DNA from: Lutibacter sp.
GTDB taxonomy: Bacteria; Bacteroidota; Bacteroidia; Flavobacteriales; Flavobacteriaceae
Direction: 5' to 3'
DNA: 64,000 nt
Assembly (NCBI GenBank): GCA_030694935.1
Contig: JAUYUA010000092.1
Span: forward strand, 108,345 to 172,344
Positions 29,238 to 49,583 of this stretch are shown piece after piece. The notes under the pieces were generated by a model that saw only the letters and a list, made by a program, of their open reading frames with translations, searched no databases and had not been told where the DNA came from. The position numbers and the translations under genes are program-made. How positions within the stretch are numbered: the stretch's first letter is position 1; each line of letters begins with the position of its first letter.

Positions 29238-29276
29238 CACCCAATTTTGAATGATTTAAGATAAAAACAGCATAAA

Positions 29277-30599: not shown

Positions 30600-30620
30600 A
30601 AACTTGCATTTCTATAAAAT

Positions 30621-30660
30621 CAAAAAACGCCTTGAAGAATTTCTTAAAGGCGTTTTTTTT
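30621..30660 (+). terminator. Rho-independent terminator of tig (copy 1 of a duplicated ~55-80 bp segment)
   Basis: AAAAAACGCCTTGAAGAA-T-TTCTTAAAGGCGTTTTTTTT. A near-identical copy lies at 46291-46328. Confidence 0.8.
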
Positions 30661-30827
30661 ATGGGTTTTATCGAAATCTCAACAAAATAAACTCCCAAGA
30701 ATTAAATTCAATTGTGCACAATAAAAATGGAAACAAAAAAAACTGTATTTTAACCGCTAACTAATTGGGTTCATTTTAATAGTAGGATTTTTTAAACCAG
30801 AAATCAATCTAAATACATAACAAATTA

Positions 30828-31592
30828 ATGAAAGGAATCATGTCTTCACAAATTGAAATCAACAAACTAACCGCAATCATAGTTGATGATGAACTTCACG
30901 GCAGGGAAAATCTAAAACTGATTATTCAAAATTACTGTCCGGAGATTGAAGTTATAGGAAGTGCAGACGATGTGGTTTCGGCAATAGCTTTGGTGAAAAA
31001 TCATTTGCCCGACGTTGTTTTTCTAGATATTAATATGCCGGTACTTGATGGATTTGATTTTCTTGACGAATTTGAAGATCGAAAATTTATGGTTGTTTTT
31101 GTAAGTGCTCACGACGAATTTGGAATTAATGCGGTAAAAGTTAGGGCAGAAGATTATCTTTTAAAACCGATAAATATCAAAGAACTCAAATTGTGCGTTA
31201 AAAAACTGCTGTGTATAAATGGTAAAAAAAACAGTTTCAAACCTGTTTTAGAAAATAATAAATTGGTTATTTCTGCTTCCCGTGGATTTAATATTCTCAA
31301 TATCGACGATATTTTGCGGTTGGAAGCTGATGGCTGTTATACCACAATTGTCACTAAAGACAAAAAAAACTCTGTAATATCACGCACTTTAAAAGATTTC
31401 GAAGAATCATTGCCAAAAGAATATTTTTTTCGGATTCACAAATCGCACCTGATTAATTTGAAATATATCAAGGACTATTCAAACTTTAGCGGAAACTTTG
31501 TCACCATGACCGACGGCAGTAAAGTTGAAATATCGCGCCGAAAAACACCAGAATTTATCCTGCGCGTAAAAACATTTCTAAATACTGTTTAG
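30828..31592 (+). CDS. LytTR-family two-component response regulator (REC + LytTR DNA-binding domain)
   Basis: IVDDE...DVVFLDINMP receiver motifs. C-terminal LRLEADGCYTTI...FFRIHKSHLINLKYI LytTR signature. Confidence 0.9.
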   Translation: MKGIMSSQIEINKLTAIIVDDELHGRENLKLIIQNYCPEIEVIGSADDVVSAIALVKNHLPDVVFLDINMPVLDGFDFLDEFEDRKFMVVFVSAHDEFGINAVKVRAEDYLLKPINIKELKLCVKKLLCINGKKNSFKPVLENNKLVISASRGFNILNIDDILRLEADGCYTTIVTKDKKNSVISRTLKDFEESLPKEYFFRIHKSHLINLKYIKDYSNFSGNFVTMTDGSKVEISRRKTPEFILRVKTFLNTV

Positions 31593-31594
31593 AG

Positions 31595-34594
31595 ATGCTT
31601 AATAAAAATATAATTTTTGCCGCATTTTTTCTCTTTTGTTTTCCAAATATCCATTCACAAACCCCATCTTATTATCATTATACTTCGTCCGACGGATTGG
31701 CATCTTCCACCGTTTACGATATTATTCAAGATAATGACGGATTTATGTGGTTTGCCACCGCCAACGGAATAAGTAAGTTTGATGGCAATCACTTTGCTAC
31801 ATTCCGAACCAAAGACGGTTTAAATTCCAACTCAATTATTTCTCTTTTGGAAGGAAGAAAAGGCGAATTATACATCGGTAATTTTGAAAAGGGAATTAAT
31901 ATTTTAAAAAATGGTAAAATTGAAAATTATTGCAGCGTAATTGACGGCAAAAGTTTGGTGATTTCTTACTTAATATTTGACACTTCAAAAAAAAATGAAC
32001 AGAAAATTATTGCATATAATGGTTGGGGTGATATCAATTTAATCAGTGAAACCGCATCGGGTAAACTGAGCACAAAAATTATTAAGGCCTTTCCCGTTTA
32101 CATCAATAAATTAGAAAAACTGGCAAATGGTGATTTAATGGCTTTAACTACAACGGGTTTGTATGATTTTAAAGTTGAATCACTTTCAAAATTGAACATC
32201 AAAAGTTTGCCCGAAACTTCAGTTTTTTGTCTCGCCAACGGCAATGACGGGAGTTACTATATCGGCACAAAAGGAACAATTTACCAATTAAAAAACAAGG
32301 CTATAATTGGAACATATAAAATAGATTTAGCGAGCAACAATGAGGTTACCGCTATTTTAAGCGATAAAAATAATAATATTTGGTTTTCAAACAGAAATTC
32401 GGGTTTTTATATGATTCCAAACGGTTCAAACAAAATAATAGATATTGGAAGTAAATTAGACCTACAAAATACGCTGGTAAACAAATATTTTGAAGATAAG
32501 GAAGGAAATATTTGGATCAGCACTTTTGGAAAAGGCGTTTATTGCATTAACAATCTTTACCTAAAAAGTTATAATGAAAATGACGGATTGCATAATAATA
32601 ACGTTTATGCTATTGCTAAAGTAAGTTCGGGAAAATTATTATTGGGTACTTTTAATGGCGTAAGTATTTTAGAAAACGGAAAATTCGACCAGATCAAAAA
32701 TAAAAATGATAAAACTTTATCGGAATATATTTATAACATTAAAAATTTAAATAATGAATTTTATGTTTGTGGGTCAGTTGTAAAAAACGACACATCCACT
32801 ATTTCTTATAAAGACATAAAATTGCATTTGTTTGATGGACTTTCATTTTGCAAATTAAGCAATGGATTGTACTTGTTTGGAGGAAGAACAAATTACATAA
32901 GAGTGCAAAATAAGTTTAATGATGGTAAAAACCAAGCATCAGAAGTGTTTATTTTTGGTGAAGAGCGCAGCGCAAACCGAATCAATCAAATTTTTGAGGA
33001 TTCAGAAAAAACACTTTGGATTGGCACCGGACATGGTTTGTGCAAAGCATCAGTTTTGCTCGATAAAGCAGGGAAACTAACTTTAAAGAAAACCTTTTTT
33101 AAATCCAATTCAATTTTAAATTCGAAAATAAATGCCATTATTCAAGATAATGACCACAACATTTGGGTAGCCGGAGAAAAAGGGATTGTTCGTTATAATC
33201 TAAAAAACAATTCCATTACAGACTATGAAAATATTGGGGATCAGGATTTATCGTCGTCTACTTCAGTTGTTTCCGACAAAAAAAACAGAATTTGGGTTGG
33301 AAATATGAAGGGTCTTTATTTGGTTGATGGCAACACAATTAAATATTTTAATAAGCAAACCGGCCTTCCGTCGGATGAAGTTTATTCACTTTTTTATGAT
33401 CGGGGAAAAAACCAGTTAGTGATTGGTTCAAGCGCCGGGATCACGTTTTTGGATATTGGTTTGTATGACAATGCTATTTTACCGCAACTACAGGTTAAAA
33501 TTATGGGCGTAAAGGCCGGGGATTCAATTTACGCCAACTATAACCATCTGGTTTTTGAGCCTGAACAGCGAAATGTTTCCATTAATTTTAAAGCGCTAAA
33601 CTTTTCTTCTCCGGGCTCTGTGAGATATCAGTATAAATTAGATGACAGCAAATGGAAAGAAACCCACGATGATGTTCTTAATTTTCTTTCTCTTAAAAAT
33701 GGAAAATATAACCTCCAAATTAGGGCAAAATCCCAAAATGGAAATTGGAGCAATCCGGCTCAGATTTCCTTTGAAGTGAAACCTCGTTTTACAGAAACCG
33801 TTTGGTTTAAATTTTTGATGCTGTTAATTGTTGCATTGGTTTCGAGTTTCTTGGTGGCTTGGCAAGCCAGAATTCAACAGCGTAAAGCACGTAAAAAACT
33901 AAAATTGAATCAGAGAATTAATGACCTTAAACATCAAGCTTTGTCGGCCATGATGAACCCGCATTTTATTTTTAACTCCCTTAATTCGGTACAATATCTT
34001 ATCAACAGCAACAGAAATGAAGAAGCCAACGATTATATAGCGATTATGGCTAAATTGATACGGAAAAATTTGGAAACCGCCGGAAGCGGATTTATACTTT
34101 TATCTGAAGAAATCAGCCGACTGAAACTTTATTTGAATTTGGAGAAACTCAGATTTCAGGACAGGTTTTCTTTTGAGATTATTACAGGAAACGATATAGA
34201 TTCAAATGCTTTAATGATTCCGAATATGATTCTCCAGCCATTTGTTGAAAACGCGCTGTGGCACGGCATTCTTAATTCGGGAATAAAAGGTTTGCTGACC
34301 ATCTCTTTTTCTTTTGAAAATATAGAAATTGATGGTGAAATTTGTAAATCACTACTGATTAAAGTTACCGATAATGGCATTGGAATTATTGAAGCAAGGA
34401 AACATAAAAAAGTTGACCATATTTCAAAAGGAATCCAGATTATTGAGGAACGCCTCCGTTTGTTGAGCGAAAAAATGGAATTGCCCCAACCAATTATGAT
34501 TGACGATTTAAGCAATCAAAATAATAATGCACACGGCACCGAGGTTATCATTTCACTTCCGCCTCCGCTCTATCAAATAATTGTCAAGGAATAA
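31595..34594 (+). CDS. Sensor histidine kinase: periplasmic two-component-regulator beta-propeller repeats + Y_Y_Y domain, TM, LytS-type His_kinase + HATPase
   Basis: Repeated DGFMWFAT / GNIWIST / LWIGTGHGL propeller blades, VRYQYKLD (Y_Y_Y), TM, NPHFIFNSLNSVQYLI, PFVENALWHG. Starts 2 nt after the response-regulator stop. Confidence 0.88.
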   Translation: MLNKNIIFAAFFLFCFPNIHSQTPSYYHYTSSDGLASSTVYDIIQDNDGFMWFATANGISKFDGNHFATFRTKDGLNSNSIISLLEGRKGELYIGNFEKGINILKNGKIENYCSVIDGKSLVISYLIFDTSKKNEQKIIAYNGWGDINLISETASGKLSTKIIKAFPVYINKLEKLANGDLMALTTTGLYDFKVESLSKLNIKSLPETSVFCLANGNDGSYYIGTKGTIYQLKNKAIIGTYKIDLASNNEVTAILSDKNNNIWFSNRNSGFYMIPNGSNKIIDIGSKLDLQNTLVNKYFEDKEGNIWISTFGKGVYCINNLYLKSYNENDGLHNNNVYAIAKVSSGKLLLGTFNGVSILENGKFDQIKNKNDKTLSEYIYNIKNLNNEFYVCGSVVKNDTSTISYKDIKLHLFDGLSFCKLSNGLYLFGGRTNYIRVQNKFNDGKNQASEVFIFGEERSANRINQIFEDSEKTLWIGTGHGLCKASVLLDKAGKLTLKKTFFKSNSILNSKINAIIQDNDHNIWVAGEKGIVRYNLKNNSITDYENIGDQDLSSSTSVVSDKKNRIWVGNMKGLYLVDGNTIKYFNKQTGLPSDEVYSLFYDRGKNQLVIGSSAGITFLDIGLYDNAILPQLQVKIMGVKAGDSIYANYNHLVFEPEQRNVSINFKALNFSSPGSVRYQYKLDDSKWKETHDDVLNFLSLKNGKYNLQIRAKSQNGNWSNPAQISFEVKPRFTETVWFKFLMLLIVALVSSFLVAWQARIQQRKARKKLKLNQRINDLKHQALSAMMNPHFIFNSLNSVQYLINSNRNEEANDYIAIMAKLIRKNLETAGSGFILLSEEISRLKLYLNLEKLRFQDRFSFEIITGNDIDSNALMIPNMILQPFVENALWHGILNSGIKGLLTISFSFENIEIDGEICKSLLIKVTDNGIGIIEARKHKKVDHISKGIQIIEERLRLLSEKMELPQPIMIDDLSNQNNNAHGTEVIISLPPPLYQIIVKE

Positions 34595-34611
34595 ATTTAC
34601 TTTTTACACTT

Positions 34612-34662
34612 ACCGTTAAATTAGGAAAACCTACCGTTAGTTTATTAATACCTACCGCACGC
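34612..34662 (+). promoter_or_regulatory. Three phased LytTR-type direct repeats (ACCGTTAAA, ACCGTTAGT, degenerate ACCGCACGC; 21-bp start-to-start)
   Basis: Box 2 matches [TA][AC][CA]GTTN[AG][TG] 9/9 and box 1 matches 8/9, with 12-bp spacers. The array sits directly upstream of -33/-7 elements of the downstream operon. Confidence 0.6.
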
Positions 34663-34671
34663 TTGTTAGCT

Positions 34672-34703
34672 ATTGTGATAGCCGATTCTTGTGTTTAGAT
34701 TTG
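34672..34703 (+). promoter_or_regulatory. Putative promoter of the giant-protein operon (-33 ATTG at 34672-34675, -7 TAGATTTG at 34696-34703)
   Basis: TAnnTTTG match with a 20-bp gap to a TTG element. Lies 21 nt upstream of the ATG at 34724. Confidence 0.45.
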
Positions 34704-34723
34704 ATACAAAAGCTAAAGCTCCC

Positions 34724-34975
34724 ATGTGGAATTTTCTAAAAAACTTACAGAATTTATTTACAAAGAAGCAATCTGTTTCCACACCACTTTTAATTATCAA
34801 AAAAAGTGCTGATGATGCTAATGTAAAAGAATACAACTCAATTGAAGAAGCCATTGCCGATCTTGAAAACGACCCAAATGTTCCCGCAGAAAAAATAAAA
34901 AAGCTAAAATCGTCCGTTAAATTGTTAAAGGACAAGTCTTCCATAAAAATCAGAAATGGTGAAATCATAAAATAA
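34724..34975 (+). CDS. Small hypothetical protein (83 aa, no signal peptide), first ORF of the operon
   Basis: ATG at 34724 is preferred over GTG at 34691, which overlaps the -7 box. Charged K/E-rich sequence. Ends 13 nt before the next gene. Confidence 0.45.
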   Translation: MWNFLKNLQNLFTKKQSVSTPLLIIKKSADDANVKEYNSIEEAIADLENDPNVPAEKIKKLKSSVKLLKDKSSIKIRNGEIIK

Positions 34976-34987
34976 AATACAACAGTT

Positions 34988-37900
34988 ATGAAGAAACATC
35001 TTGTGCTCCTATTATTGGCAATTACTTTTCAGGGTTTTGCGCAAACCAATCTTATTACCGGTATCAACATTTCTCTGCCTGCAAACCCAAGTGGAAATAT
35101 TGCTGAATGGTCTAAATCTATGCCACCGTTCATGATTTCTGCACAAACCAGAATGGAAAACGGAAAAGTGTCCCCAATGGTGACGGAAAGCCGAATTTTG
35201 GTTTCTATAAAAGGCAATGGTGCCGTTTGCGGAAACTATACTGTTGACAATGCTCCGTCAAGTAATTTTAATTCACCCGCTAAAGTATGGTCGGGCGAAG
35301 CGGCGCTTAACTTATTGGGAAAAACTTGCGTTTTAAAACCTGGGAATTATGAACTTTGTGTAAAGTTCTATGGCTATGGCGCTGTTGGCCAGGTTTTAAT
35401 CGGTGAAAGCTGTAAATCATTTACCATAAAAGAAACTGAGCATAAATCGTATCAGCCACCTCAGCCTTTAACGCCCGTAAATGGACTTTCCTATACAACT
35501 GGTGACTTCGCGCAACCACAGTTGTTTCGTTGGACTCCTATAGTACCAAAACCTCAAGAGCCGGTAACTTATAGGTTAAAAGTTTGGCAACTGACTGAAG
35601 GCCAAACAGGAACGCAAGCGATGAAGGCAAACCAGCCTATTATTACCAAAGATGTTGAAAATATGACGCAGGTTGTGATTAATAATATTATAGATGGTCC
35701 TTGCAAACCACCTTACCTATGCGATTTTGTATGGAATGTTCAAGCATTAAACAAAGAAGGGAATCCAATAGGTGAAAATAAAGGAATAAGCAGCCCATTT
35801 CAGTTTGCGGTAAATGAAGCAGCGCCAAACGTTAATAAATCAATGCCTGTTAATGAAGAGGAGGAAGTAGTGGTTCCAACAGGAAATATTGCGGTTAACG
35901 ACACCATTTATGCCGGTTATAATGGAGAATTTGCCATTATTACAACACAAGTTAGCGGCACCAATAAATTTTCAGGTAAAGGAACAGCCTTCATAAATTG
36001 GCTAAAGGCACGAGTGAGCGTTAAATTTGACAGCATTACTGTTGATACCAATAAGAAATTGCTCACAGGAAAAATTTTGGCTGAAATTCATGCTACAGCG
36101 CCAGTTTATCCGCAAGATTGGGCTTTAGAAATTGTAGCCAACAATCCTTGGGCGAATAGTGCGGCTTCAAGTATGGTTACTTGGGTTGAAAGCCAAACCA
36201 ATCAAACAATTCCTTATAATAATTTAACAGAAGTAACGACTCCGGTGAAATTGCCTCTTGGACTTAATTTTCCAAACGGGGATCAATTGGCGATCACCGA
36301 ATTGGTTTTTAGAAACAATAAATCTGAATTCAATTTGGTAACTTCAAAAACTACGCCGCAAGACTGGGGAAATCCTGTTCAATTGGTAGGTTTTATTGCT
36401 AAAAATATAGAATTTCATCCCAGCAATATTAAAATGCCTCCCAATAGAATAGAACTTGTTGAAGATGTTACCATTATTGCAAATCCTAAAATTAATTTCA
36501 CCTTTAAAAAACCCACAAATTCAAATACAGGTTGTTTTGTAGAATGGGGTGAAAATGGATTTTCGCAATTCGGAATCGAAATACATTCTGAGTTTACCAG
36601 AGATTGGTTATTGCCTTCTCCTGATGATGGAATTTCCAAAACCAAGGCAAAACTATTTGCCTTAGGCACTGCTTGGAATGATTTGGTTTTAACTGGTACT
36701 TTGGATAAATCAGAAATAGTTTCCGCACAAGGAATGACAGTATTGGCCGATAGTTTGTCTTATGATATGTCCGATGTTTTAAATCCGCCAAGCATCACCT
36801 TTCCAGAAAATTATGATGGAGAAACATCCAACTTATTCAGGGGTTTTTATATGAAAGAATTGGTTGTGGAAATGCCCACAACCTGGCAAACCAATTCGGG
36901 CGGCAAACCTCAAATTTCAGTTCAAAATATGATTATTGACAATACAGGTATTACGCTATTTGCGGAAGCTACCAATGTTGTTCAGTTTCCAAATGCAAAC
37001 GTAGCCGATTTGGTTGCGAGCATTGATACGGTTCACGTAGAAATTGAATCGAGTTCGCTTGTTGAAGCAAGTGTTAAAGGCCGAATTGGATTGCCGGTAA
37101 GTAAAGCGGATTCTATTCAAAATCCATTAAAATATATCGCACTATTCAATAACGCGCAATTGCCTTCTCAAACAAGCTATTTTCAATTAACCATTGAACC
37201 GACAGGTCCAATTTATGCAAATTTGTTAAAAGGCGTGATGACACTTGCCCAAACCTCAAATATTGTTGCGTATGTTGATAAAAACAAAAAAACATTTCAA
37301 ACAATGCTCAACGGAAATTTTGTTTGGAACAATGTGAAATTAGGGCCGGTGAAAAATGTCAATATGAACATAGGATTTCAAGGAATTGCCATGAATTATG
37401 ACTCAAGTTTGGCAAGTAATAAATTCACCTTCAATGCGGGCGCATGGTCATTTGCAAGTCCTCAAAAATTCCTGGCAAATTTCCCGGTAACCATAGACAA
37501 TATCGGATTTAAGCAATTGCCAACCACAGGCAGTCAAATGCTTCATGGAAAATTAAATTTTGATGTCATTTTTAACTTGTCAACAGATGTAGGAGGGCAA
37601 TCTAAATTGGCCGTTGAATTGGCAATTGAAGACAATCAAAATGCTTCAGGATTGGGAAAATTTAAACCAAAATATATTGGAACCAGTATTTCCGACATCA
37701 GTGTTTATGCAAATTTACCAGCCGTTTCTATTGATGGAACCATTCAATTCAGAAATGATGATCCCGTTTTTGGAAATGGTTTCAAGGGAACACTTCAAGC
37801 AACTTTTAAAGCACCAAAAGTGAGTATTTCAGCTTTGGCCGAATTTGGAAACACCAGTTATCTTCATACATCAACTTACAGATATTGGCGGGTTGAAGCA

Positions 37901-39847
37901 TCGGCAATTTTTCAACCTGGCTTGCCATTTTTACCGGGAGTTGCTTTTTATGGCTTTGGAGGCGGCGCATCAAACAATATGTTGGCAACCATAAATAACA
38001 GCACAAAAAAATATGATTTTACGCCTAAAAAAGGCAGTTTAGGATTTAAAGTGCTTGCCGTAATTGGAACCACACCTAAAGTTGAATCATTTAATGCCGA
38101 TGTTGGGTTAAACGGACAATTTTCAGCTGGTCAAGGAATGTACAATATTGGTTTTACGGGCGATTTTTATATTGGTGCGCCATTGCTTCCTCAAATAGAA
38201 AGAGATAAAGCACAAATTAAAGGAAGTGTTATTGCCGACTATAATTTCCCTGATAAACATTTTTATATGTATGCGGCTGTTACTGTAAATGCGCCGCCAA
38301 TTACCACACCAAGTCCGGCTGAATTAACCTTGGACACCAATGGGAAAACAAACAAATGGTTTTTTAAATTTGGTGAACCTACCGACACCAATGTAGTCAG
38401 TATTTTTAGCGTAAATTTATATGAATATTTAATGTTCGGAAACGACATTAAAGCGCCTGTAAATGGTTTTACCGAAGGTTTCAGAAACAGTTATTACAGT
38501 GTTGTAAATCAATATCCGGGCATCCCGTCATTTCCTGGTGTTGATGGCAATTCTGCTACCGGAAGAGGTTTTGCTTTAGGCGTTGGAATAAAAATCGATA
38601 AAAATTTTAATACGCATATAGTAAATGGATACTATTTGGATCTTGTGATGGCTGCCGGCGCAGAAGTCAATTTAAGTATGATGGAATACATCGGACAAAA
38701 TTGTGCCAATCCTTCCCAGCGCATCGGTTTAAATGGTTGGAGAGCAAGAGGAAATATTGGTTTTTATGTTGATGCAGGTGCGAAAGTGGTGAAAGGAAAT
38801 GACACTTGGAATTTGGCAAGTATAAAAGCAGGCGGCTGGTTAGACGCTAAATTTCCGAGGCCAACTTATGTGGCTGGCGCCGTTCAGGGAAATATACAAA
38901 TAGGAGGTTTTACAACTAAAATACACACATTGGGCGATTGCAATGCGGGTGATGGCGCCTATCATGTAGGCAAACAAAATGATCATTGGGGCGTGAACAA
39001 ATGGACTAGTTGCACACACCTCCAATATCACTATCTTGTAAATCAATCATTTAACAAAACTTTTGATTGGGGTGACAATTGCGGCAGTGGCGATACAACA
39101 CAACCGGCAAGCACAGGGCCTGCAATTGCGCAACAAGACGCCGCGGCAGACCAGGAACAGCTATTGATAAAATATGTTCATCCAGGAACCACCTATAATT
39201 TTCCTACAACAATGCCAATTGCCGTAAAATATGGTTTGCCGTTAAATGAGGAATTTGACGTTTCCGAACAACAAAGCAGCGGCAGCATCATTAACAGAAC
39301 ATTTAAATTGGTGACCACAGTAACGCTTCAAGAAAAAAATGAAACTACCGGCGTATATGCAAGTATCAATAAAAAATTTAGCAAAAATAATTTAGGGGAA
39401 TATTTGTATGTTAAGGTTGGTCCAATGATAGCGCAACAACAGGCCGTTGTATTGCCAGTGACAAATATGAAAAACAAGACACTCACGCCGCAAGCGGCTG
39501 TTGTCCAAATTTCCAATATGCCTGTAAGCAATGTGCCCAATAATATCAGCAATGTTAGTTTGTCAAAAAATGTTGCAATACAAACATTTTATCCTGCGCC
39601 TGAAGCTGGCGAATATGACAACTTACCACCTGAGCCAGCAGCCGTTGTAAATGCTCTTGAGCTAAATAAATGGTATAAAATTATAGTGGTTGCCAATTTA
39701 CAGGAATTTAAAAATAACGTTTGGGTAAATGCACTTAAATCAAATGGAAGTCCGGTTACGCAAACAGTAACCAAAACTTTCAGAACAGGACCAATGCAAC
39801 TGGTTAGCACAAATAAAGTCATTAATAACACTATTAAAAGCAACTAA
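34988..39847 (+). CDS. Giant secreted hypothetical protein (1,619 aa), no recognisable catalytic or sorting motif
   Basis: Sec signal peptide (..FQGFAQ). Two N-terminal Ig-like modules are shared with ORF 43848-44735. Long beta-rich G/N/T-rich body. No T9SS CTD. Confidence 0.7.
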   Translation: MKKHLVLLLLAITFQGFAQTNLITGINISLPANPSGNIAEWSKSMPPFMISAQTRMENGKVSPMVTESRILVSIKGNGAVCGNYTVDNAPSSNFNSPAKVWSGEAALNLLGKTCVLKPGNYELCVKFYGYGAVGQVLIGESCKSFTIKETEHKSYQPPQPLTPVNGLSYTTGDFAQPQLFRWTPIVPKPQEPVTYRLKVWQLTEGQTGTQAMKANQPIITKDVENMTQVVINNIIDGPCKPPYLCDFVWNVQALNKEGNPIGENKGISSPFQFAVNEAAPNVNKSMPVNEEEEVVVPTGNIAVNDTIYAGYNGEFAIITTQVSGTNKFSGKGTAFINWLKARVSVKFDSITVDTNKKLLTGKILAEIHATAPVYPQDWALEIVANNPWANSAASSMVTWVESQTNQTIPYNNLTEVTTPVKLPLGLNFPNGDQLAITELVFRNNKSEFNLVTSKTTPQDWGNPVQLVGFIAKNIEFHPSNIKMPPNRIELVEDVTIIANPKINFTFKKPTNSNTGCFVEWGENGFSQFGIEIHSEFTRDWLLPSPDDGISKTKAKLFALGTAWNDLVLTGTLDKSEIVSAQGMTVLADSLSYDMSDVLNPPSITFPENYDGETSNLFRGFYMKELVVEMPTTWQTNSGGKPQISVQNMIIDNTGITLFAEATNVVQFPNANVADLVASIDTVHVEIESSSLVEASVKGRIGLPVSKADSIQNPLKYIALFNNAQLPSQTSYFQLTIEPTGPIYANLLKGVMTLAQTSNIVAYVDKNKKTFQTMLNGNFVWNNVKLGPVKNVNMNIGFQGIAMNYDSSLASNKFTFNAGAWSFASPQKFLANFPVTIDNIGFKQLPTTGSQMLHGKLNFDVIFNLSTDVGGQSKLAVELAIEDNQNASGLGKFKPKYIGTSISDISVYANLPAVSIDGTIQFRNDDPVFGNGFKGTLQATFKAPKVSISALAEFGNTSYLHTSTYRYWRVEASAIFQPGLPFLPGVAFYGFGGGASNNMLATINNSTKKYDFTPKKGSLGFKVLAVIGTTPKVESFNADVGLNGQFSAGQGMYNIGFTGDFYIGAPLLPQIERDKAQIKGSVIADYNFPDKHFYMYAAVTVNAPPITTPSPAELTLDTNGKTNKWFFKFGEPTDTNVVSIFSVNLYEYLMFGNDIKAPVNGFTEGFRNSYYSVVNQYPGIPSFPGVDGNSATGRGFALGVGIKIDKNFNTHIVNGYYLDLVMAAGAEVNLSMMEYIGQNCANPSQRIGLNGWRARGNIGFYVDAGAKVVKGNDTWNLASIKAGGWLDAKFPRPTYVAGAVQGNIQIGGFTTKIHTLGDCNAGDGAYHVGKQNDHWGVNKWTSCTHLQYHYLVNQSFNKTFDWGDNCGSGDTTQPASTGPAIAQQDAAADQEQLLIKYVHPGTTYNFPTTMPIAVKYGLPLNEEFDVSEQQSSGSIINRTFKLVTTVTLQEKNETTGVYASINKKFSKNNLGEYLYVKVGPMIAQQQAVVLPVTNMKNKTLTPQAAVVQISNMPVSNVPNNISNVSLSKNVAIQTFYPAPEAGEYDNLPPEPAAVVNALELNKWYKIIVVANLQEFKNNVWVNALKSNGSPVTQTVTKTFRTGPMQLVSTNKVINNTIKSN

Positions 39848-41961
39848 TGAAAAAATCTATAAATAAATATTCGATCCTTTCAATGGCACTATTTATGTTT
39901 TTTTCAAGCATAAATGCACAAGAAAGCAATGAGGAACAGCCAACAAGCATTATCAATATGGTTGCGCGTTACTTACCTGAAGACAATGCAGTAGAAATGC
40001 GATTTTTTCCCGATAAAAAATCTATTTTATATTCCGGCATAAAATTCGGTTTTGTGGTAGAAAGAGCTGAAATTTCTGAAGAGATAAAAGTAGAAGCAGA
40101 TTTAAAATATATCAAAATTGCTGAAGTTTTTCCTTATAATGAAGGGCAATGGACTGCCGCTTTTTCAAAAGGAGACGATGAAACAAAGCACAATTTAAAC
40201 CTTGCAAAAGACTTTTTTGACAATATAGACAAACAAACCGGAGGAAAATTCAATTTTGATGAGGGCATAAAAGAAATGAAAGAACAAAAAAGCAAGGAAG
40301 ATTTCGAATACTTAATTTTTGTGATGAATGCCATTAAAGATAAGGATGTAGCCGAAGCAATTGGATTGTCTTATACAGATAAAACCGTTCAAAAGAATAA
40401 AAATTATTTGTATCGGATTAAATTAAATAAAGAACCAAAATCAGCTTACAAAGTTGTTGGATTGCCTTTTAATATTGAAACTGCCGTAAATAAAAAGCAA
40501 GAGGAAAGAAAAATATACACGGTTACTGGCGACAAAGAATTGACTTTTCTTTGGGAAGAAAGTGATATGGTTTCCGGCGCTTTGGTTGAACGAAAAAACA
40601 ATAAAACCGGAAATTACGAACCATTGAATGAAACACCCGTTTACACGTTGGGTGAAACATCAAATCGAAATGGTTATAAAGACGAAAATTTAACAAATTA
40701 CCAATGGTATGAATATCGTTTTTACGGTTACAATCCTTTTGGGGAAAAAATTCTTTTTGGTTCAGCAAAAGCAATGCCTAAAGATCTTACGCCTCCAAAA
40801 AAACCACTGCTCATAAAAGCCAAACATGAAAAATTTGATGAAGTTTTGGTTGAGTGGAATGTTACCGATCCTATAGATAATGATTTAAAAGGATTTATAG
40901 TGGCTCGCGGCGAAATCAATGATGGAAATTTTCAAATTCTGCATCAAAATTTATTGTCAAAAAGCACAAGAAGTTTTACCGATAAAACTTTTAGCGGCGT
41001 AAAAAGCAATTATTATGTTGTTCAGGCAATTGACACCAGCGGAAATATAAGTTCTACAACGCCGGCTTTTGTAACAATTACAGATTCAATTCCGCCTGCA
41101 AAACCTAAATTTATTTCAGGAAAAATTGATTCTTTGGGCATTGTTACCATAAACATTGAGATGAATAAAGAATTGGATTTAATGGGCTACAGATTGTATA
41201 GGTCCAACAGCGATGAACACGAATTTTCTTTGATACGTGAAGGCTTTAGTGAAAACGATTCAATCATAAAGCCAGTTCAAGTAATTTTTAAGGACACGGT
41301 AACATTAAATTCACTCACGCCTTATATTTATTATAAAATTATTGCATTAGATTTCAATTTTAACCAATCAGAATCTTCTGAAATAATAAAAGTGAAACGT
41401 CCAGATAAAATTCCTCCAACAACGCCGGTGTTTAAAAATGTAATTGTTAAACAAAATGAAATAGAACTGCATTTTGCATTAAGCGAAAGTGAAGATGTTG
41501 TGGAACAATATCTCTATCGAAAATTAAAAACGGACGCGCCTTGGGAATTGCTCAGCAAATTGGACAATAAGTTAACATCCTTTACCGATAAAAAGTTAAA
41601 ACAGGGAACCGTTTATTTCTATTCTTTACGCGCAAAAGACGACAGCAATTTATTCTCGGAATATGCAAAGCCTGTTTATGGAAAACCGTTCGATAATGGC
41701 GTAAGGCCTCCTATAAAAATCCTTGTCATTAAAAAGGACGACAAGGATATTTCACTTTCCTGGGAATATGAATTTTTGAATGACAATACCTATTTTGTAA
41801 TTTATAAAGCAGATAAAAAGGGCAATTTAATTCAGTATAAAAACACCACCAAACTTCTTTTTAAAGAGCCTGTTGGCAAAGAAACAAACAGTTATGCGGT
41901 TAAAGTATTCACAAAAGATGGCGGACAGTCGAAAATTAGCAATACGGTAATCATTAGATAA
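39847..41961 (+). CDS. Secreted protein with 4-5 tandem fibronectin-type-III-like modules
   Basis: Signal peptide. ~100-aa modules are delimited by PPKKP / PPAKP / PPTTP / PPIK, each with L-x-W ... Y-x-Y-x-(V/I)-x-A-x-D ... S pattern. Start overlaps the upstream stop (TAATG). Confidence 0.65.
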   Translation: MKKSINKYSILSMALFMFFSSINAQESNEEQPTSIINMVARYLPEDNAVEMRFFPDKKSILYSGIKFGFVVERAEISEEIKVEADLKYIKIAEVFPYNEGQWTAAFSKGDDETKHNLNLAKDFFDNIDKQTGGKFNFDEGIKEMKEQKSKEDFEYLIFVMNAIKDKDVAEAIGLSYTDKTVQKNKNYLYRIKLNKEPKSAYKVVGLPFNIETAVNKKQEERKIYTVTGDKELTFLWEESDMVSGALVERKNNKTGNYEPLNETPVYTLGETSNRNGYKDENLTNYQWYEYRFYGYNPFGEKILFGSAKAMPKDLTPPKKPLLIKAKHEKFDEVLVEWNVTDPIDNDLKGFIVARGEINDGNFQILHQNLLSKSTRSFTDKTFSGVKSNYYVVQAIDTSGNISSTTPAFVTITDSIPPAKPKFISGKIDSLGIVTINIEMNKELDLMGYRLYRSNSDEHEFSLIREGFSENDSIIKPVQVIFKDTVTLNSLTPYIYYKIIALDFNFNQSESSEIIKVKRPDKIPPTTPVFKNVIVKQNEIELHFALSESEDVVEQYLYRKLKTDAPWELLSKLDNKLTSFTDKKLKQGTVYFYSLRAKDDSNLFSEYAKPVYGKPFDNGVRPPIKILVIKKDDKDISLSWEYEFLNDNTYFVIYKADKKGNLIQYKNTTKLLFKEPVGKETNSYAVKVFTKDGGQSKISNTVIIR

Positions 41962-42089
41962 TAGAGGAATATTGAAGTGGAATTTTTCGATGTTATAAAA
42001 TATTATTTATGCCTTTTATGAATTTAAAAAAATCAAAATGAAGAATTCTTATATCAAAATTAAGCAAAATAATATTTAATCAAAACCAA

Positions 42090-43823
42090 ATGAAGCAACT
42101 CAAAAAAACGGCAGTAATTATTATTTTGTTGCTTGCTTTTCAAGCAAATGCACAAGAAAAGAAATATGCTTTTTCCGTAAAAGGTGATATGGGAATATGG
42201 TATGAAGGTTATGGGCTCGATAAAAATCCAAGTCCGGCCGTACCCGATTTTTATTCCGCCAGAAAACCTTGGAATTTAGTGCGATATTCCTTCAATCCAA
42301 CTTTTTCAATTGGCAAATGGGAAATTCCTATGAATTTTAATTTCAGTCCTATGATAACCAATTTCATTACACCGGCTGGAACGAAACAAAATGTGTGGCA
42401 ATTTTTAACAAATCCGGCGAATAATTTTGGTTTGCGCCCTAAAATTGGAACTACAGAATTTCTGTTGGGTACACAAACCTTAAAATACAGTGATTTAAGT
42501 ACCGGAGATTTGGGTGTTTTTGGGTATGGCGTTAATTTATCACCAGGAAAATTCAGAATTAAATTATTTAAAGGTGTCTCACAAAGTCCTGTCAATTACG
42601 AAGCGCCAACGCTTCCAAATCCTGCTGGCGTAATTGGAGCTTATCAACGCAACCAATGGATGGCACAAATTGGTCTTGAAAAAGAGGGAAGTTATTTTAC
42701 CGGATTCAATTTTGTGAAATCTATCGACAAACGAAATTCTGTAACAACACCGCCTTTGTCGCCTATTGATCCGCAGGAAAACATGGTCGTTACTTTTTTA
42801 ACCACGGCCAATTCAGAAAACGGATGGAAATATCATATTGAACTCGGACAAAGTTTTCATACGCTTAATTTAAATACGCCGCTATCTTCTGTTCCGGTGG
42901 AGGATTTCAAACCTTTTATCAACGCACATATTTCTTCTTCAAAAGACAATGCGGTTTTATTGGGTCTGGCCAAAAAAGGACAAGATTGGGAAATTGGCAC
43001 AAAATTTAAATATTTTGGTGCCGGCTATTTTACCGCGGGATATCCTTTTATGAACAATGACCTTATTGATTACCTTATTGATGCGCGGTTTAACGCCTGG
43101 AAAAAGAAAGTGAATGTGGTTGCCAGTATCGGCGAGCGTTTTGGAAATTTAAGCCTTACTTCTGGTCCGGACAAAACCAGACAAATTATTGCCAATGTGA
43201 ATGTATTTACGCAATTTAGCGACAAACTTAGTTTGAATATGAGTTTTAACAATTTTGGTTATGATGCACCAGATTTGTCGGGATACAAAAGCGTGAGCAA
43301 TGAACTCAGTATAAATCATTCCTATAGTTGGAGCAGCACTAAAATGAGTCATTTAATAAGCGCCACATACACCAAGAGTACTTATGATGAAACCATTGTT
43401 TTTGTTACCACGCACAACAATACACAAACAGCATTGCTGCTGTATGTTCCAACATTTTTCGAAAAAAAGATTAGTCCGGATTTTAGTTTAATGTGGTTCA
43501 AAAATACAGCGCCTGCAATTGACCTTTCTTTGTTTACTGCTTCAAGCGGATTGAAATGGAAGGTGAACCAAAAATTTAATTTAAAAGGTCAGGTTCAATA
43601 CAATTTAACCACGATGAAACCTTTTACAGCAAATAAAAACTTATTGGCAACAGCGGGCTATGAATGGGAAATTTATAAAAAACTGTCTTGGCAATTTTCT
43701 TTGACGGCGAATGTTTTCAAATTTGGAACAGAATTGCCCGGAAACTCTTTAATTCCTATTTACTCTGGCAATCCACAGTATTTTGAGACGACTATGCGGA
43801 CAGGATTGCGTTATAAATTTTAA
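42090..43823 (+). CDS. Predicted large outer-membrane beta-barrel protein (577 aa), family unknown
   Basis: Signal peptide (..FQANAQ), alternating amphipathic beta-strand pattern throughout, C-terminal TGLRYKF aromatic beta-signal. Confidence 0.6.
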   Translation: MKQLKKTAVIIILLLAFQANAQEKKYAFSVKGDMGIWYEGYGLDKNPSPAVPDFYSARKPWNLVRYSFNPTFSIGKWEIPMNFNFSPMITNFITPAGTKQNVWQFLTNPANNFGLRPKIGTTEFLLGTQTLKYSDLSTGDLGVFGYGVNLSPGKFRIKLFKGVSQSPVNYEAPTLPNPAGVIGAYQRNQWMAQIGLEKEGSYFTGFNFVKSIDKRNSVTTPPLSPIDPQENMVVTFLTTANSENGWKYHIELGQSFHTLNLNTPLSSVPVEDFKPFINAHISSSKDNAVLLGLAKKGQDWEIGTKFKYFGAGYFTAGYPFMNNDLIDYLIDARFNAWKKKVNVVASIGERFGNLSLTSGPDKTRQIIANVNVFTQFSDKLSLNMSFNNFGYDAPDLSGYKSVSNELSINHSYSWSSTKMSHLISATYTKSTYDETIVFVTTHNNTQTALLLYVPTFFEKKISPDFSLMWFKNTAPAIDLSLFTASSGLKWKVNQKFNLKGQVQYNLTTMKPFTANKNLLATAGYEWEIYKKLSWQFSLTANVFKFGTELPGNSLIPIYSGNPQYFETTMRTGLRYKF

Positions 43824-43847
43824 AAAACAAACGAATATTCAACTAAA

Positions 43848-44735
43848 ATGAAAAAATATAATTTAATAACAGCCCTTGGATTTTTTCTGATTGTTCAGAT
43901 GGCTCAGTCACAAATTACCGTAAACTTGGCTTTAAACAGCAGGCCGCAACCTTGGTTGTCGCAATGGGGAAATCCGATAAACGGACAAATGATTATCACC
44001 TATATGAAAGGACCTGTGCAAGGCGAGGCCCAAGTTAAACTCAGGACAACTTTATCAGATGAAAGCGGAAGCATTGTTGGCGCGTCAAATATTAATGCAT
44101 CTCGTATTTATACTTTAAGAGAAGGCGTAAACCTATTTACGATGGCCGATGCTTTGCAATTGCAAAATTTAGTTTTATCGGGAAAAGTGCAAAATACGCT
44201 TCAACGCACCGGGCGATTGGCTGCCGGCCAATACCAATTAAAAGTTGAAGTGGTAAATGTTTCTGGCGAGGCGGTTTTTGCGCGCCAGACTCATCCGTTT
44301 TTTATCACTTCTTACCAATTGCCTAAATTAATGGTTCCTGCCGACGGCGCACAATTGGACGCACTTGTTGCCCAAAGTTTGATTACTTTTCGTTGGACTG
44401 GATTGGTGCCGAATACCTCCGAACTTCCTACTTATCGTGTTCAGGTTTTTGAAATTTTGCCCGGGCAAACACCGATGCAGGCATTTCGCGGAAACTTTCC
44501 CATTTTAGATGAACCCGCTTTGCGAGGCACAACACAATATATTTGGAGAACCAGTCTGCCGATGTTAGATGATACCGCCAACCAAAAATTTATATGGACA
44601 GTGCAAACACTTGATATGGAAGGGCACCCAGTTCCAAGTAATGATATGAATAATCAGGGAAGAAGTGAACCAGCCGTTTTCACCATCATAAACCAAATGG
44701 GCGCTGGCAATAAGGACAAAATGAACGAAGATTAA
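43848..44735 (+). CDS. Secreted hypothetical protein, paralog of the N-terminal ~275 aa of the 1,619-aa protein
   Basis: Signal peptide. Collinear matches include YQxP, FRWT, VP, TYRxxV, GQTxxQA and WxVQxLxxEGxP at equivalent positions (Y156 vs Y155). Confidence 0.65.
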   Translation: MKKYNLITALGFFLIVQMAQSQITVNLALNSRPQPWLSQWGNPINGQMIITYMKGPVQGEAQVKLRTTLSDESGSIVGASNINASRIYTLREGVNLFTMADALQLQNLVLSGKVQNTLQRTGRLAAGQYQLKVEVVNVSGEAVFARQTHPFFITSYQLPKLMVPADGAQLDALVAQSLITFRWTGLVPNTSELPTYRVQVFEILPGQTPMQAFRGNFPILDEPALRGTTQYIWRTSLPMLDDTANQKFIWTVQTLDMEGHPVPSNDMNNQGRSEPAVFTIINQMGAGNKDKMNED

Positions 44736-44745
44736 ATAAAAGCGC

Positions 44746-46266
44746 ATGAAAAAAATTATCAGTATCATCGTTTTTGGAATTTTAGCGCTACAACTAGCAG
44801 CCCAAGTTCCGCAAGAAAGAAAGCCTTCAACCTTGGCGTTTCATATTTTTTATAACGATTTTAATACCGCCCAGCAAATCAAAACAAGCTCTTTAAATAA
44901 TGTGCTTAAAAATCACCTTTGGAGTAAAATTGGCGATATGCAAACGGGATTCGGAATTAATTACTTAAAGGGAATTCGCAATAAAATTGATTTTGTTGCC
45001 ACAATTGATGGCAGTTGGACAGATTATCTTTATGACGATGGCACATTTTACGGAAGCAATGAATTTTTATTGGATGCCAATGCCGCTCTGAATTTTAAAA
45101 TGTTGACCGATCGACATACGCTTGTGCCATATATTTCAAGTGGTGTTGGAGTTTCGTTATATCAGGGCAAAACGGGTTTTTATGTTCCTGTTGGCGCCGG
45201 ATTGCAATTCAATGTATTTGATGAAGCTTTTATTTTTACAAATATTCAGTACCGTTACGCGTTGACTTCCTCAGTTAATGACCATTTTAATTATACAATT
45301 GGCATCGCTGTTAGCATCGGTAAAAATAAAGTAAAACCTGCGGAAATAGTTGAACTGGTGAAAAAGGAAATATCGAACAAGAATATAATGGTTTCTGTTT
45401 ATGATGAAGCTACAAGTTTGCCTTTATCCAATGTGGAAGTTACTCTTAGCGGACCAGACAATAAAAAACTAAATGTATCTACAAATGCTGTCGGAAAAGC
45501 CGTTTTCACTTCAATAGTCCCTTCAGATTACAGCGTTTCTGGTTTGTTAAATCGTATCAATTCTTCAACCCAAAATATTGAAAAAAATGCTTTTGAGACC
45601 GAAGATAATCAAATCAATATCAGCTTAACCCACAACGATCCGCAGTTTACATTGCAGGGTGTTGTAATCAATAAAACCCAAAATATTCCTGAAGGAAATG
45701 TGGTTATAACAATCAACAACAACACAAATCAAAACATCACTAGCGTACAAAGCAATTCAGGAAGCGGAATTTTTCAATCCCAACTTGAAGCTGAAAGCGA
45801 TTTTACGCTTGTTGGAAAAAAAGCCAATTATATCTCTAACATTGTTAAAGTAAGCACCAAAGGTTTAAACAGAAGTGTAACGCTTTTTGTAAATTTAGAA
45901 TTGGCTATTGAAGAAGCAAAAGTTGGACAAAGTATCGTGTTGAATAATATTTATTTTGAAGTTGGAAAAACAACTGTGAACACTTCTTTTTCATCGGATT
46001 TGGATAAATTAGTGCAATTTTTTAATGACAATACCGAAACAAAGCTTGAGATTCAAGGTCATACAGACAATACAGGAAGTTTGAAACTTAACAATAAACT
46101 AAGTCAGGCCCGTGCAAACAGTATCGTTGATTATTTGGTAAAACAGGGAATTGACAGCCGCCGAATTTCGGCAAAAGGTTTTGGATCGTCGTTTCCAATA
46201 GCCGACAATACAACAGAAAAAGGCAGGGCCAAAAACAGACGCGTGGTCATAAAAGTAATACAATAA
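44746..46266 (+). CDS. OmpA-family protein: N-terminal small beta-barrel, carboxypeptidase-regulatory-like Ig domains, C-terminal OmpA peptidoglycan-binding domain
   Basis: C-terminal NNIYFEVGKTTV...LEIQGHTDNTGS...NNKLSQARANSIVDYL...GRAKNRRVV. Middle segment VSVYDEATSLPLSNVEVTLSG. Confidence 0.85.
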   Translation: MKKIISIIVFGILALQLAAQVPQERKPSTLAFHIFYNDFNTAQQIKTSSLNNVLKNHLWSKIGDMQTGFGINYLKGIRNKIDFVATIDGSWTDYLYDDGTFYGSNEFLLDANAALNFKMLTDRHTLVPYISSGVGVSLYQGKTGFYVPVGAGLQFNVFDEAFIFTNIQYRYALTSSVNDHFNYTIGIAVSIGKNKVKPAEIVELVKKEISNKNIMVSVYDEATSLPLSNVEVTLSGPDNKKLNVSTNAVGKAVFTSIVPSDYSVSGLLNRINSSTQNIEKNAFETEDNQINISLTHNDPQFTLQGVVINKTQNIPEGNVVITINNNTNQNITSVQSNSGSGIFQSQLEAESDFTLVGKKANYISNIVKVSTKGLNRSVTLFVNLELAIEEAKVGQSIVLNNIYFEVGKTTVNTSFSSDLDKLVQFFNDNTETKLEIQGHTDNTGSLKLNNKLSQARANSIVDYLVKQGIDSRRISAKGFGSSFPIADNTTEKGRAKNRRVVIKVIQ

Positions 46267-46290
46267 AGTAGGGTTGCGTTTTATAAATCA

Positions 46291-46328
46291 AAAAACGTCT
46301 TGAAGAATTTCTTAAAGGCGTTTTTTTA
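46291..46328. terminator. Hairpin terminator between convergent ompA-like and helicase genes (copy 2 of the tig terminator segment)
   Basis: AAAAAACGTCTTGAAGAATTTCTTAAAGGCGTTTTTTT. Has one substitution plus small indels relative to 30621-30660. Confidence 0.8.
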
Positions 46329-46348
46329 TGTTTTAACTTGGTCTAAAC

Positions 46349-47683: not shown

Positions 47684-47709
47684 TCTTATATTTTTTGCAA
47701 AGGTAATAC

Positions 47710-47808
47710 TTAATAAGTTAATAAGTTATAAAGTCGGAAGTCGGAAGACGGAAGACGGAAGATCGGAGACGGAAGGTCTGAGCCGGAAGCTAAAACGTCC
47801 GAAAGTTG
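47710..47808. repeat. Decaying 7-8-mer tandem array (TAATAAGT x2-3 grading into CGGAAGT/CGGAAGA x6-7)
   Basis: TAATAAGTTAATAAGTTATAAAGTCGGAAGTCGGAAGACGGAAGACGGAAGATCGGAGACGGAAGGTCTGAGCCGGAAGC. Related array at 54526-54568. Confidence 0.8.
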
Positions 47809-47857
47809 ATGAGATTTTTTGGAAGTATTTATAAATATGAATTTTAGCTTAATAATT

Positions 47858-49566: not shown

Positions 49567-49583
49567 ATAATTTGGTGCAAAAA

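Follow-up and report, generated by a model that had tools for sequence, protein, structure and literature searches.

A conserved, undescribed gene cluster for predicted cell-envelope proteins in Lutibacter sp. and other Bacteroidota

Introduction

Large surface proteins of the Bacteroidota are thought to use type IX secretion (by the T9SS) or lipoprotein export. A stretch of 64,000 nt from Lutibacter sp. (assembly GCA_030694935.1, contig JAUYUA010000092.1, positions 108,345 to 172,344 of the forward strand; hereafter the window, in whose numbering coordinates are given unless another locus is named) contains a block of eight co-oriented genes (30828-46266, + strand, ~15.6 kb) coding for a LytTR-type two-component system, a giant secreted protein of 1619 aa, a predicted outer-membrane barrel, an OmpA-family protein and smaller partners. 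The question raised by this locus is whether the block is an envelope system in its own right, a version of a known system, or a chance arrangement of envelope genes. A preliminary description, made from the sequence alone, had proposed a self-contained outer-membrane assembly or export apparatus, with its own sensory system, built around the giant protein. As judged by homology and synteny, the cluster is real, conserved and undescribed, and lies outside every known system at the homology level; the folds of its parts are of familiar classes, and the function proposed below is one that we infer. A full-text literature search found no description of the cluster, and its proteins are called hypothetical in every named source.

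Organization of the gene cluster

The open reading frame list agrees with the eight genes and coordinates given in the preliminary description. Indeed, the block encodes, in this order and all on the + strand, a response regulator (30828-31592), a sensor histidine kinase (31595-34594), a small protein of 83 aa, which is the first gene of the operon (34724-34975), the giant protein (34988-39847), which has a signal peptide and is of no known family, a fibronectin type III (FN3)-like repeat protein of 704 aa (39847-41961), a predicted outer-membrane beta-barrel of 577 aa ending in GLRYKF (42090-43823), a secreted protein of 295 aa, hereafter p295 (43848-44735), and an OmpA-family protein of 506 aa (44746-46266). 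The intergenic distances are 2 (between the regulator and kinase genes), 129, 12, -1, 128, 24 and 10 nt. The 1-nt overlap of the start of the 704-aa gene with the stop of the giant gene had been correctly noted, and the gaps first given as 13, 129, 25 and 11 were each one too high (12, 128, 24 and 10). The six genes downstream of the kinase gene are tightly packed, as a predicted operon would be, and a strong terminator hairpin followed by a run of U closes the unit.

Each of the five large operon proteins starts with a Sec-type signal peptide, and none of them has a lipobox cysteine. Pfam returned nothing for the giant, 704-, 577-, 295-aa and small (83/94-aa) proteins, and NCBIfam agrees with the Pfam assignments; the only members of known families are the LytTR two-component system and the OmpA domain. 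The first ~295 aa of the giant (signal peptide, D1 and D2; 34988-35872), hereafter the N-module, are common to the giant and p295.

Conservation across the Bacteroidota

An alignment of the barrel was used to scan 185,579 species-representative genomes (one for each species), and 246 of these contain relatives of the barrel; the cluster is present in at least 246 species, and most of the carriers seen are environmental metagenome-assembled genomes (MAGs). The eight window proteins were compared by tblastn with the 80 best barrel loci, and the counts given here are over the loci with enough flanking sequence. Every taxon label among these 80 loci is Bacteroidota. The taxa include Lutibacter, Pedobacter, Mucilaginibacter, Daejeonella, Ferruginibacter, Limnovirga, Prolixibacteraceae, Lentimicrobiaceae and Emticicia, and co-localisation extends across the Flavobacteriales, Sphingobacteriales, Chitinophagales, Bacteroidales and Cytophagales. 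The p295 gene lies directly after the barrel gene in all 70 loci, the OmpA gene is next after the p295 gene in 46 of 63, and 44 of 50 loci encode, upstream of the barrel, a protein that carries the N-module. The core of the giant was found upstream in 15 of 50 loci and the FN3 protein in 16 of 50, and the sensor pair lies within the fetched flank in 23 of 46. With its gene set found again in many genomes, the block is far from being a chance arrangement, and the gene-neighbourhood survey, covering five orders of Bacteroidota, shows the genes to form one conserved unit, in support of the earlier view of one compact block.

By this comparison of gene content, the invariant core of the cluster is the barrel with p295, usually the OmpA protein, together with the ~295-aa N-module, and the giant core and the FN3 protein appear as swappable parts that are present in ~30% of the loci only. 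The notion of a system built around the giant therefore has to be given up. Identities follow the same division: in loci that have all parts, and as measured over the best tblastn segments only, the medians are 67% for the barrel, 61% for p295, 50% for the OmpA protein and 46% for the N-module, and 33%, 31% and 29% for the variable parts, namely the FN3 protein, the giant core and the giant C-terminus.

The gene order varies in detail. A Chitinophagaceae MAG whose giant is 41% identical to that of Lutibacter has the order regulator, kinase, giant, 695 aa, 577 aa and 282 aa, and a genome with 32% giant identity has two giants in tandem, the two-component system being present. At one locus on a 2.5-Mb contig (L004, 4796-14950), tandem giants of 1721 and 1649 aa precede the FN3, barrel and p295 genes, and extra small genes lie between the kinase gene and the giants. 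A further contig has a rearranged order with the two-component system downstream, and a Kapabacteria contig carries barrel-like, giant and FN3-like genes without the sensor pair.

In variant loci, one of the slots for putative cargo is filled by a 600-700-aa protein with the same N-module and the other by large DUF11, DUF7507, SdrD_B, PKD or RHS repeat proteins. Examples, encoded beside the barrel gene or in the slot that follows the N-module protein, are a 2475-aa protein with RHS repeat and DUF6443 matches (L027, 2466-9893) and an 1820-aa PKD-repeat protein (L006, 13178-18640). The RHS protein raises the possibility that some versions of the cluster carry toxin-type cargo.

The outer-membrane barrel

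On sequence conservation, the barrel is the most conserved component of the cluster: identity within the family is 47-70% across orders, which is unusually high for a barrel, and many Arg, Asp, Glu, Asn and Gln residues are invariant. The AlphaFold2 model, built from a 41-sequence alignment, is a barrel of ~25-26 long strands without a plug (pLDDT 83.1, pTM 0.68), in line with the first prediction of an outer-membrane barrel. Its first match in a Foldseek search of the PDB was MtrB (6r2q_B, E 1.5e-9, TMq 0.53), and further matches were SlpA, the ushers FimD and PapC (TMq 0.35-0.45), LptD and TonB-dependent transporters. A profile search of PDB sequences gave nothing significant (best E 0.22), and Pfam found only scattered generic outer-membrane-barrel matches among 41 family members.

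The column entropy was compared on the two faces of the amphipathic strands. The polar face, which would line the lumen, is more conserved (0.88 bits) than the hydrophobic, lipid-facing one (1.23 bits), as would be expected of a membrane barrel whose interior is under functional constraint.

Two other loci of the window touch on outer-membrane barrels. The sole Omp85 of the window, a BamA-like protein with POTRA repeats (21408-24017, - strand), probably acts as insertase of the operon's barrel proteins. A respiratory cluster resembling alternative complex III (55161-61296) includes a multihaem cytochrome c with a weak MtrC/MtrF-like match, a molybdopterin/4Fe-4S protein and an NrfD-like membrane subunit; no link was found between this cluster and the MtrB-like fold of the operon barrel.

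The N-module and its D2 domain

The N-module comprises D1 (aa ~20-150) and D2 (aa ~155-285). p295 is a stand-alone paralog of this module, as had been proposed: it aligns with aa 100-275 of the giant in BLASTP with E 4e-17 and 31% identity over 186 aa. The Lutibacter giant also shares the module, at 54% identity, with a 703-aa protein of a Sphingobacteriia MAG; the rest of the two proteins is unrelated.

Within D2, tblastn and alignment delimit a domain of ~80-95 aa of the type FRWTP...GPCKPPYLCDFVW (35513-35746, + strand), with a highly conserved stretch that reads FRWTPVVPKPQEPVTYRLKVWQL...GPCKPPYLCDFVW. No Pfam model and no PDB sequence match was found for it. A D2 profile search of 1.84 billion representative proteins returned 873 clusters, with D2 usually near the N-terminus and in up to 7 tandem copies; large D2 proteins also carry Laminin_G_3, SdrD_B, Toxin_R_bind_N, PKD, PA14, fn3 and Y_Y_Y domains. 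In a typical barrel locus, the upstream protein contains one canonical D2, which is 55-82% identical to the consensus, and the D2 of p295 is divergent (30-50%). D2 is also 44-59% identical, in whole-sequence alignments, to ~200-aa proteins (P0335, P0347, P0352 and P0341). The small D2 proteins have an N-terminal transmembrane or prepilin-type (N_methyl) segment, and one is assigned to Candidatus Paceibacterota.

Two other leads on this module were set aside. Proteins of 900-1200 aa that appeared as relatives of the giant, labelled DUF2520, TetR_C_21 or SusE, owe these labels to partial matches of ~40 aa that are mostly below the cut-off. One protein so labelled, P0085, contains five of the six D2-encoding stretches of locus L006, and P0076 has six D2 stretches. 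The idea that D2 is a phage receptor-binding domain was rejected, no relative having been found in the viral contig collection.

The giant protein

The giant was at first called an orphan, and more than 200 homologs have since been found, among them a hypothetical protein of a Lutibacter sp. MAG with which it is 100% identical. Its core (aa 296-1340; 35873-39007, + strand) is followed by a C-terminal region (aa 1341-1619; 39008-39847, + strand) that is present in the loci having the core. The AlphaFold2 model of the core is all-beta, with hairpin strands of 12-20 residues (pLDDT 79.8, pTM 0.43). Foldseek matches in the PDB are weak (TM <=0.18) and include LptD, SlpA, the ApoB100 beta-belt and teneurin, and the top match in a viral structure library, also of low TM, is a mimivirus chorein-N (VPS13-like) protein. 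The only invariant residues of the core are W, P, G and F, so the giant is unlikely to be an enzyme, which agrees with the earlier remark that it has no catalytic motif.

Of 39 long strands in the core, 28 are strongly amphipathic. The hydrophobic face is more conserved than the polar one (1.46 versus 1.97 bits), which points to a buried core and hence to a soluble or extracellular beta structure, not an integral membrane barrel. The giant core is thus probably not a membrane part of an apparatus; of the outer-membrane apparatus first proposed, the dedicated barrel stands. An integral outer-membrane barrel had been hinted at by the amphipathic strands and the barrel-type Foldseek matches; it was rejected because the face conservation is opposite to that of the 577-aa barrel, to which the giant core is unrelated according to hhalign. 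Searches of the giant C-terminus with Pfam (to E 10) and NCBIfam (to E 1) detected neither Por_Secre_tail nor CHU_C nor a C-terminal domain of type B.

The FN3-like and OmpA-family proteins

The 704-aa protein occupies a variable slot and consists of internal repeats of ~100 aa, each opening with a D..PP..P motif. Of its earlier description as an FN3-repeat protein, the repeats hold and Pfam gives no match; a CbhB FN3 region in NCBIfam (E 2.8e-5) and a LAR FN3 domain in the PDB (E 1.3e-3) provide weak support for the fold.

The OmpA-family protein has a C-terminal OmpA-like domain (Pfam OmpA, E 1e-22, aa 403-498), as in peptidoglycan anchors, and CarboxypepD_reg in its middle domain or domains (E 1.3e-6). 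Its partial NCBIfam matches all lie below the cut-offs (given in brackets): CHU_0125 at 128 bits (620), PorE at 102 (600) and TraB at 62 (700). This protein was also said to carry a barrel of its own; a small barrel is plausible for the N-terminal ~190 aa from their strand pattern, and no barrel profile match was found there.

Regulation by the two-component system

The regulator combines a receiver (Pfam Response_reg, E 1.4e-20) with a LytTR domain (E 2.2e-21), and the kinase, encoded 2 nt away, combines Reg_prop (E 1.2e-38), Y_Y_Y (E 5.1e-9) and a LytS-type His_kinase domain (PF06580, E 4e-20), as first described. The sensor region of the kinase, a Reg_prop beta-propeller with Y_Y_Y (aa ~22-735, ~700 aa), is periplasmic and is followed by one transmembrane segment, a hydrophobic stretch at aa ~735-760. 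A homolog of the regulator adjoins the cluster in other genomes.

The 129-nt spacer between the kinase gene and the operon contains three 9-bp direct repeats with 12-bp spacers (34612-34662, + strand), namely ACCGTTAAA (34612), ACCGTTAGT (34633) and ACCGCACGC (34654). The pattern of a repeat pair is unique in the 64 kb of the window, 0.17 matches being expected by chance. Seven loci were aligned (the Lutibacter clade, L016 and L018, down to ~60% protein identity); all of them retain the ACCG cores and the 21-bp register, and the flanks drift. LytTR sites are imperfect direct repeats of the form [TA][AC][CA]GTTN[AG][TG] with 12-13 bp spacing, located upstream of the -35 element (PMC5600425), and AgrA binds such repeats as a dimer (PMC4227749). 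The first repeat of the Lutibacter spacer fits this consensus at 8 of 9 positions and the second at 9 of 9. Conservation of the boxes and their agreement with the LytTR consensus and spacing give good support, as far as sequence goes, to the view that the neighbouring regulator controls the operon directly, and with it to the earlier proposal that the block has a sensory system of its own.

Downstream of the repeats, GCTATTG is invariant in the alignment and TAG.TTT (TAGATTTG) is largely conserved. They delimit a putative operon promoter (34673-34703, + strand; TTG at 34673-34675 and TAGATTTG at 34696-34703), which we take to resemble the Bacteroidetes -33 TTTG / -7 TAnnTTTG promoter. Transcription would then start ~12-15 nt before the ATG at 34724. 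A longer form of the first operon gene, with a GTG start at 34691 (94 aa), is possible, and the placement of the promoter elements favours the 83-aa form.

The small protein has no signal peptide and belongs to no known family, its Pfam matches being sub-threshold only (E 0.012-0.025). It was found by tblastn in six related loci, and the distant locus L001 has a 92-aa gene in the corresponding place; a regulatory or chaperone role is possible.

The AT-rich gap of 128 nt before the barrel gene (41962-42089, + strand) has a 3' half that is conserved in close relatives, where the alignment reads ...CAAAATGAAGAATTC...ATTAAGCAAAATAATATTTAATCAA. This gap could hold an internal promoter or a translation signal that would allow separate expression of the platform genes. 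A sigma-70 promoter and terminator scan of the block gave counts not above those of shuffled sequences and was not used, its model not covering Bacteroidota promoters.

Comparison with known systems

By fold, the barrel model most resembles a sheath or usher-type pore. MtrB, from the MtrCAB complex of Shewanella (PDB 6R2Q), and the operon barrel are both plugless sheaths of ~26 strands; moreover, the function of MtrB depends on partners from the same operon, for which p295 and the giant N-module are a suggested counterpart pair. However, the operon barrel has no sequence similarity to MtrB and no MtrB_PioB profile match, the CxxCH haem motif is absent from all operon proteins, there is no electron-transfer context, and the partners are beta-rich, adhesin-like proteins. 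In the chaperone-usher pathway, a large barrel (FimD, PapC) passes folded Ig-like subunits, and the neighbours of the operon barrel encode Ig/FN3-like repeats. The operon barrel nevertheless lacks a plug and the N- and C-terminal usher domains, and no Usher or PapD profile match was found; the putative subunits are giant multidomain proteins instead of ~15-kDa pilins, with a two-domain N-terminal module as the suggested address.

In gene logic, the closest analogues appear to be the T9SS type-B cargo loci and the TraA/TraB pair. Type-B loci of Flavobacteriia combine a SprB-type adhesin with a PorP/SprF barrel and a PorE/OmpA-like protein, and thus share with the operon the phylum and a set of huge adhesin, dedicated barrel and OmpA-family gene. 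The operon differs from them in several respects: (i) the match of its OmpA protein to PorE falls far under the cut-off, (ii) neither the 577-aa barrel nor the 41 family members match a PorP/SprF profile, the operon barrel being much larger than these proteins (~300-400 aa), and (iii) no type A (Por_Secre_tail), type B or CHU_C domain was found in the operon proteins with Pfam or NCBIfam, as the preliminary description had stated. CHU_C was detected in a 1110-aa protein of the window (3463-6795, E 1.3e-13), which shows that this genome uses the T9SS for other large proteins and that T9SS signals can be detected in it, so that their absence from the operon proteins is real. In Myxococcus, the polymorphic surface receptor TraA is co-encoded with TraB, an OmpA-domain outer-membrane protein. 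The TraB model matches the operon protein in the generic OmpA domain only, the Lutibacter giant has no MYXO-CTERM or PA14, and the barrel and p295 have no TraAB counterpart.

LptD-LptE resembles the cluster in having a 26-strand barrel and a separately encoded partner, and LptD is among the fold matches of both operon models. The TM-scores are only 0.10-0.24, however, with no OstA/LptD profile match and no lipobox in p295, and the operon cluster is accessory, as its restriction to 246 of 185,579 species shows. The regulator is of the same receiver-LytTR type as AgrA and AlgR, and the 9-bp repeats with 12-bp spacers upstream of a promoter are also shared; the differences are three repeats instead of two, a propeller/Y_Y_Y LytS-type kinase instead of an AgrC-type one, and the lack of autoinducer genes.

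The preliminary description had named TamB/AsmA with TamA, an adhesin-usher pair and a polysaccharide utilization locus (PUL) as homologies that would identify the cluster with a characterised system, and profile and structure searches found no confident case. Indeed, no AsmA, TamB or Omp85 profile match occurs in the block, TamB is absent from the top 50 Foldseek PDB matches of the giant core, and SusC and SusD are missing both from the block and from the flanking genes covered (27163-30599 and 46349-54525). As for two-partner and type V secretion, there is no POTRA, ShlB or Autotransporter match, and the giant core is of the soluble type and unrelated to the barrel.

Proposed function and alternative explanations

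The reading that we favour, with a probability of roughly 0.4, is that the cluster encodes an inducible platform, independent of the T9SS and made up of the barrel, its partner and the peptidoglycan anchor, at which polymorphic adhesin-like proteins would be docked or exported by means of their N-module. A periplasmic or extracellular signal would activate the kinase, and the phosphorylated regulator would induce the operon. The barrel would be the fixed platform, with the OmpA protein as its tether to the cell wall, and the D1-D2 module would be an address that docks in the barrel or passes through it. p295 would be the resident partner, acting as plug, adaptor or inner/periplasmic counterpart, much as MtrA and MtrC meet inside MtrB. 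The giant beta-rich body and the FN3 rod would be the exposed, fast-evolving part, with which the cell may attach to particles, surfaces or other cells.

The main arguments for this division into machinery and cargo are the conservation gradient and the domain swapping. Since the operon proteins have neither a T9SS C-terminal domain nor a lipobox, the usual surface routes of the Bacteroidota do not apply. The adhesin- or lectin-type domains found on D2 proteins elsewhere also suggest a platform for surface proteins, as does the modelled barrel fold, with the MtrB sheath first and then the ushers that pass folded Ig-like subunits. The synteny, the constrained barrel lumen next to a giant core of soluble type, the lack of catalytic-type invariant residues in the giant and the conserved LytTR boxes also speak for this reading.

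Several observations weigh against the platform. Only half of the loci counted (23/46) have the sensor pair within reach, the Kapabacteria locus has none, and LytTR-type repeats were not recognised by eye in the distant loci L002, L006, L004 and L001. The gradient itself is read from best tblastn segments, and the giant model combines its low pTM with the lack of a convincing fold match. D2 is present on small pilin-like proteins of Paceibacterota, a group without an outer membrane, and this domain is therefore not solely a barrel-docking device. Finally, the block encodes no energy source for export, and surface exposure of the products and contact between the N-module and the barrel are points that we infer only; the cluster may export, anchor or import.

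A bolder proposal, which appears rather unlikely, is that the cluster is an unrecognised secretion or display pathway of the Bacteroidota, in which the N-terminal D1-D2, and not a C-terminal T9SS signal, would target interchangeable giant proteins of adhesin type to a dedicated 26-strand translocon, with p295 as gate or adaptor and the OmpA-like protein as anchor. In that case, D2 on the pilin-like Paceibacterota proteins would hint at a cross-phylum attachment module.

Substrate capture and uptake, with the barrel as a specific diffusion channel for a polymer or fragments of it, the giant and the FN3 protein binding the substrate on the surface or in the periplasm and the kinase sensing a breakdown product, is unlikely. 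The kinase has the periplasmic Reg_prop and Y_Y_Y architecture that is used by Bacteroides glycan sensors (the hybrid two-component systems of PULs), D2 proteins carry the lectin-like Laminin_G_3 and PA14, and the lumen is strongly conserved, as expected of a specific channel. A GH20 hexosaminidase gene lies directly upstream in L053, but in this locus only. Moreover, SusC/SusD, a TonB-dependent receptor, a glycoside hydrolase, a lyase and an inner-membrane transporter are all missing from the block, an open pore of 26 strands exceeds known specific porins in size, and the obligate p295 and the shared N-module would be left without a role.

Envelope reinforcement has about the same low likelihood. 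A stress-induced tether or scaffold between outer membrane and peptidoglycan, comparable to OmpA, SlpA or OmpM, with the giant and the FN3 protein as periplasmic spacers, would account for an OmpA-type anchor in the conserved set, although OmpA is missing from 17 of 63 loci, and for the lack of a recognisable export signal beyond Sec. The partial likeness of the OmpA protein to the CHU_0125 'outer membrane integrity' family (128 bits, cut-off 620) points the same way, as does Deinococcus SlpA among the top matches of the barrel and giant models, but with low TM-scores (0.18-0.32). Tether domains of SLH or coiled-coil type are absent, and neither fast divergence nor the swapping of cargo for DUF11, SdrD_B, PKD and RHS proteins would be expected of a tether.

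Still less probable is a conduit for lipids or other hydrophobic compounds, in which the giant would form a groove of LptD/LptA, TamB/AsmA or VPS13 type and feed an LptD-like barrel plugged by p295. LptD (E 8.6e-7, prob 0.97-0.99) and the ApoB100 beta-belt are top PDB matches of the giant core, the mimivirus chorein-N protein leads the viral-library matches, 28 of the 39 strands are amphipathic, and the barrel, which has its partner gene adjacent, also matches LptD. All TM-scores of the giant are nevertheless <=0.18, so that these matches amount to generic beta-sheet similarity, and there is no OstA/LptD, AsmA or DUF490 profile match; the groove was therefore rejected as an identification of the giant and kept as a minor rival. 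Besides, the signal peptide of the giant is of the cleavable type and not an inner-membrane anchor, no ATPase or inner-membrane component is encoded, and the absence of the giant core from ~70% of barrel loci means that it is not an essential conduit. That unrelated envelope genes merely lie side by side downstream of a two-component system, as the 128-nt gap before the barrel gene could suggest, is excluded by the synteny, order and adjacency recurring in five orders of Bacteroidota, and is also at odds with the 1-nt overlap, the three gaps of 10-24 nt, the single terminator after the last gene and the paralogy of two products in the N-module.

If, as in the platform reading, the barrel docks or exports adhesin-like proteins, the cluster would provide a further route to the Bacteroidota surface and four new protein families, namely the barrel, p295, the N-module with the FRWTP domain and the giant core. 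Even if the function is uptake or envelope support, a large plugless barrel with an unusually conserved lumen is worth a structure. The LytTR regulator with its three conserved boxes offers a simple regulatory handle, and Pedobacter anseongensis Du54, Limnovirga soli KCS-6 and Mucilaginibacter mali are cultured carriers.

Genomic setting of the cluster

The block is flanked exactly by two copies of a terminator of the form A-run/hairpin/U-run. The left copy (30604-30662, + strand, ~55 bp; -19.5 kcal/mol, z -6.1), downstream of the trigger factor gene (tig, 29277-30599), marks the left edge of the block, and the right copy (46273-46330, + strand; -13.8 kcal/mol, z -3.9) lies between the OmpA gene and a convergent DEAD-box helicase gene. 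The second copy of the 38-nt core, at 46290-46327, differs from the first by 1 mismatch, the window contains no third, and an exact-match search did not find the flanking terminator sequence in related loci. The pair may be the scar of an insertion or duplication, or a bidirectional terminator that has been reused. The helicase gene is followed by genes for an M1 peptidase, clpP and clpX, and related Lutibacter genomes have an identical downstream gene arrangement.

At a distance from the block, the window also contains a heavy-metal resistance cluster (6831-16571, - strand), which encodes a P-type ATPase with HMA/HMBD, a CusB-like membrane-fusion protein with HMBD and DUF3347, an outer-membrane efflux protein and an AcrB-family pump.

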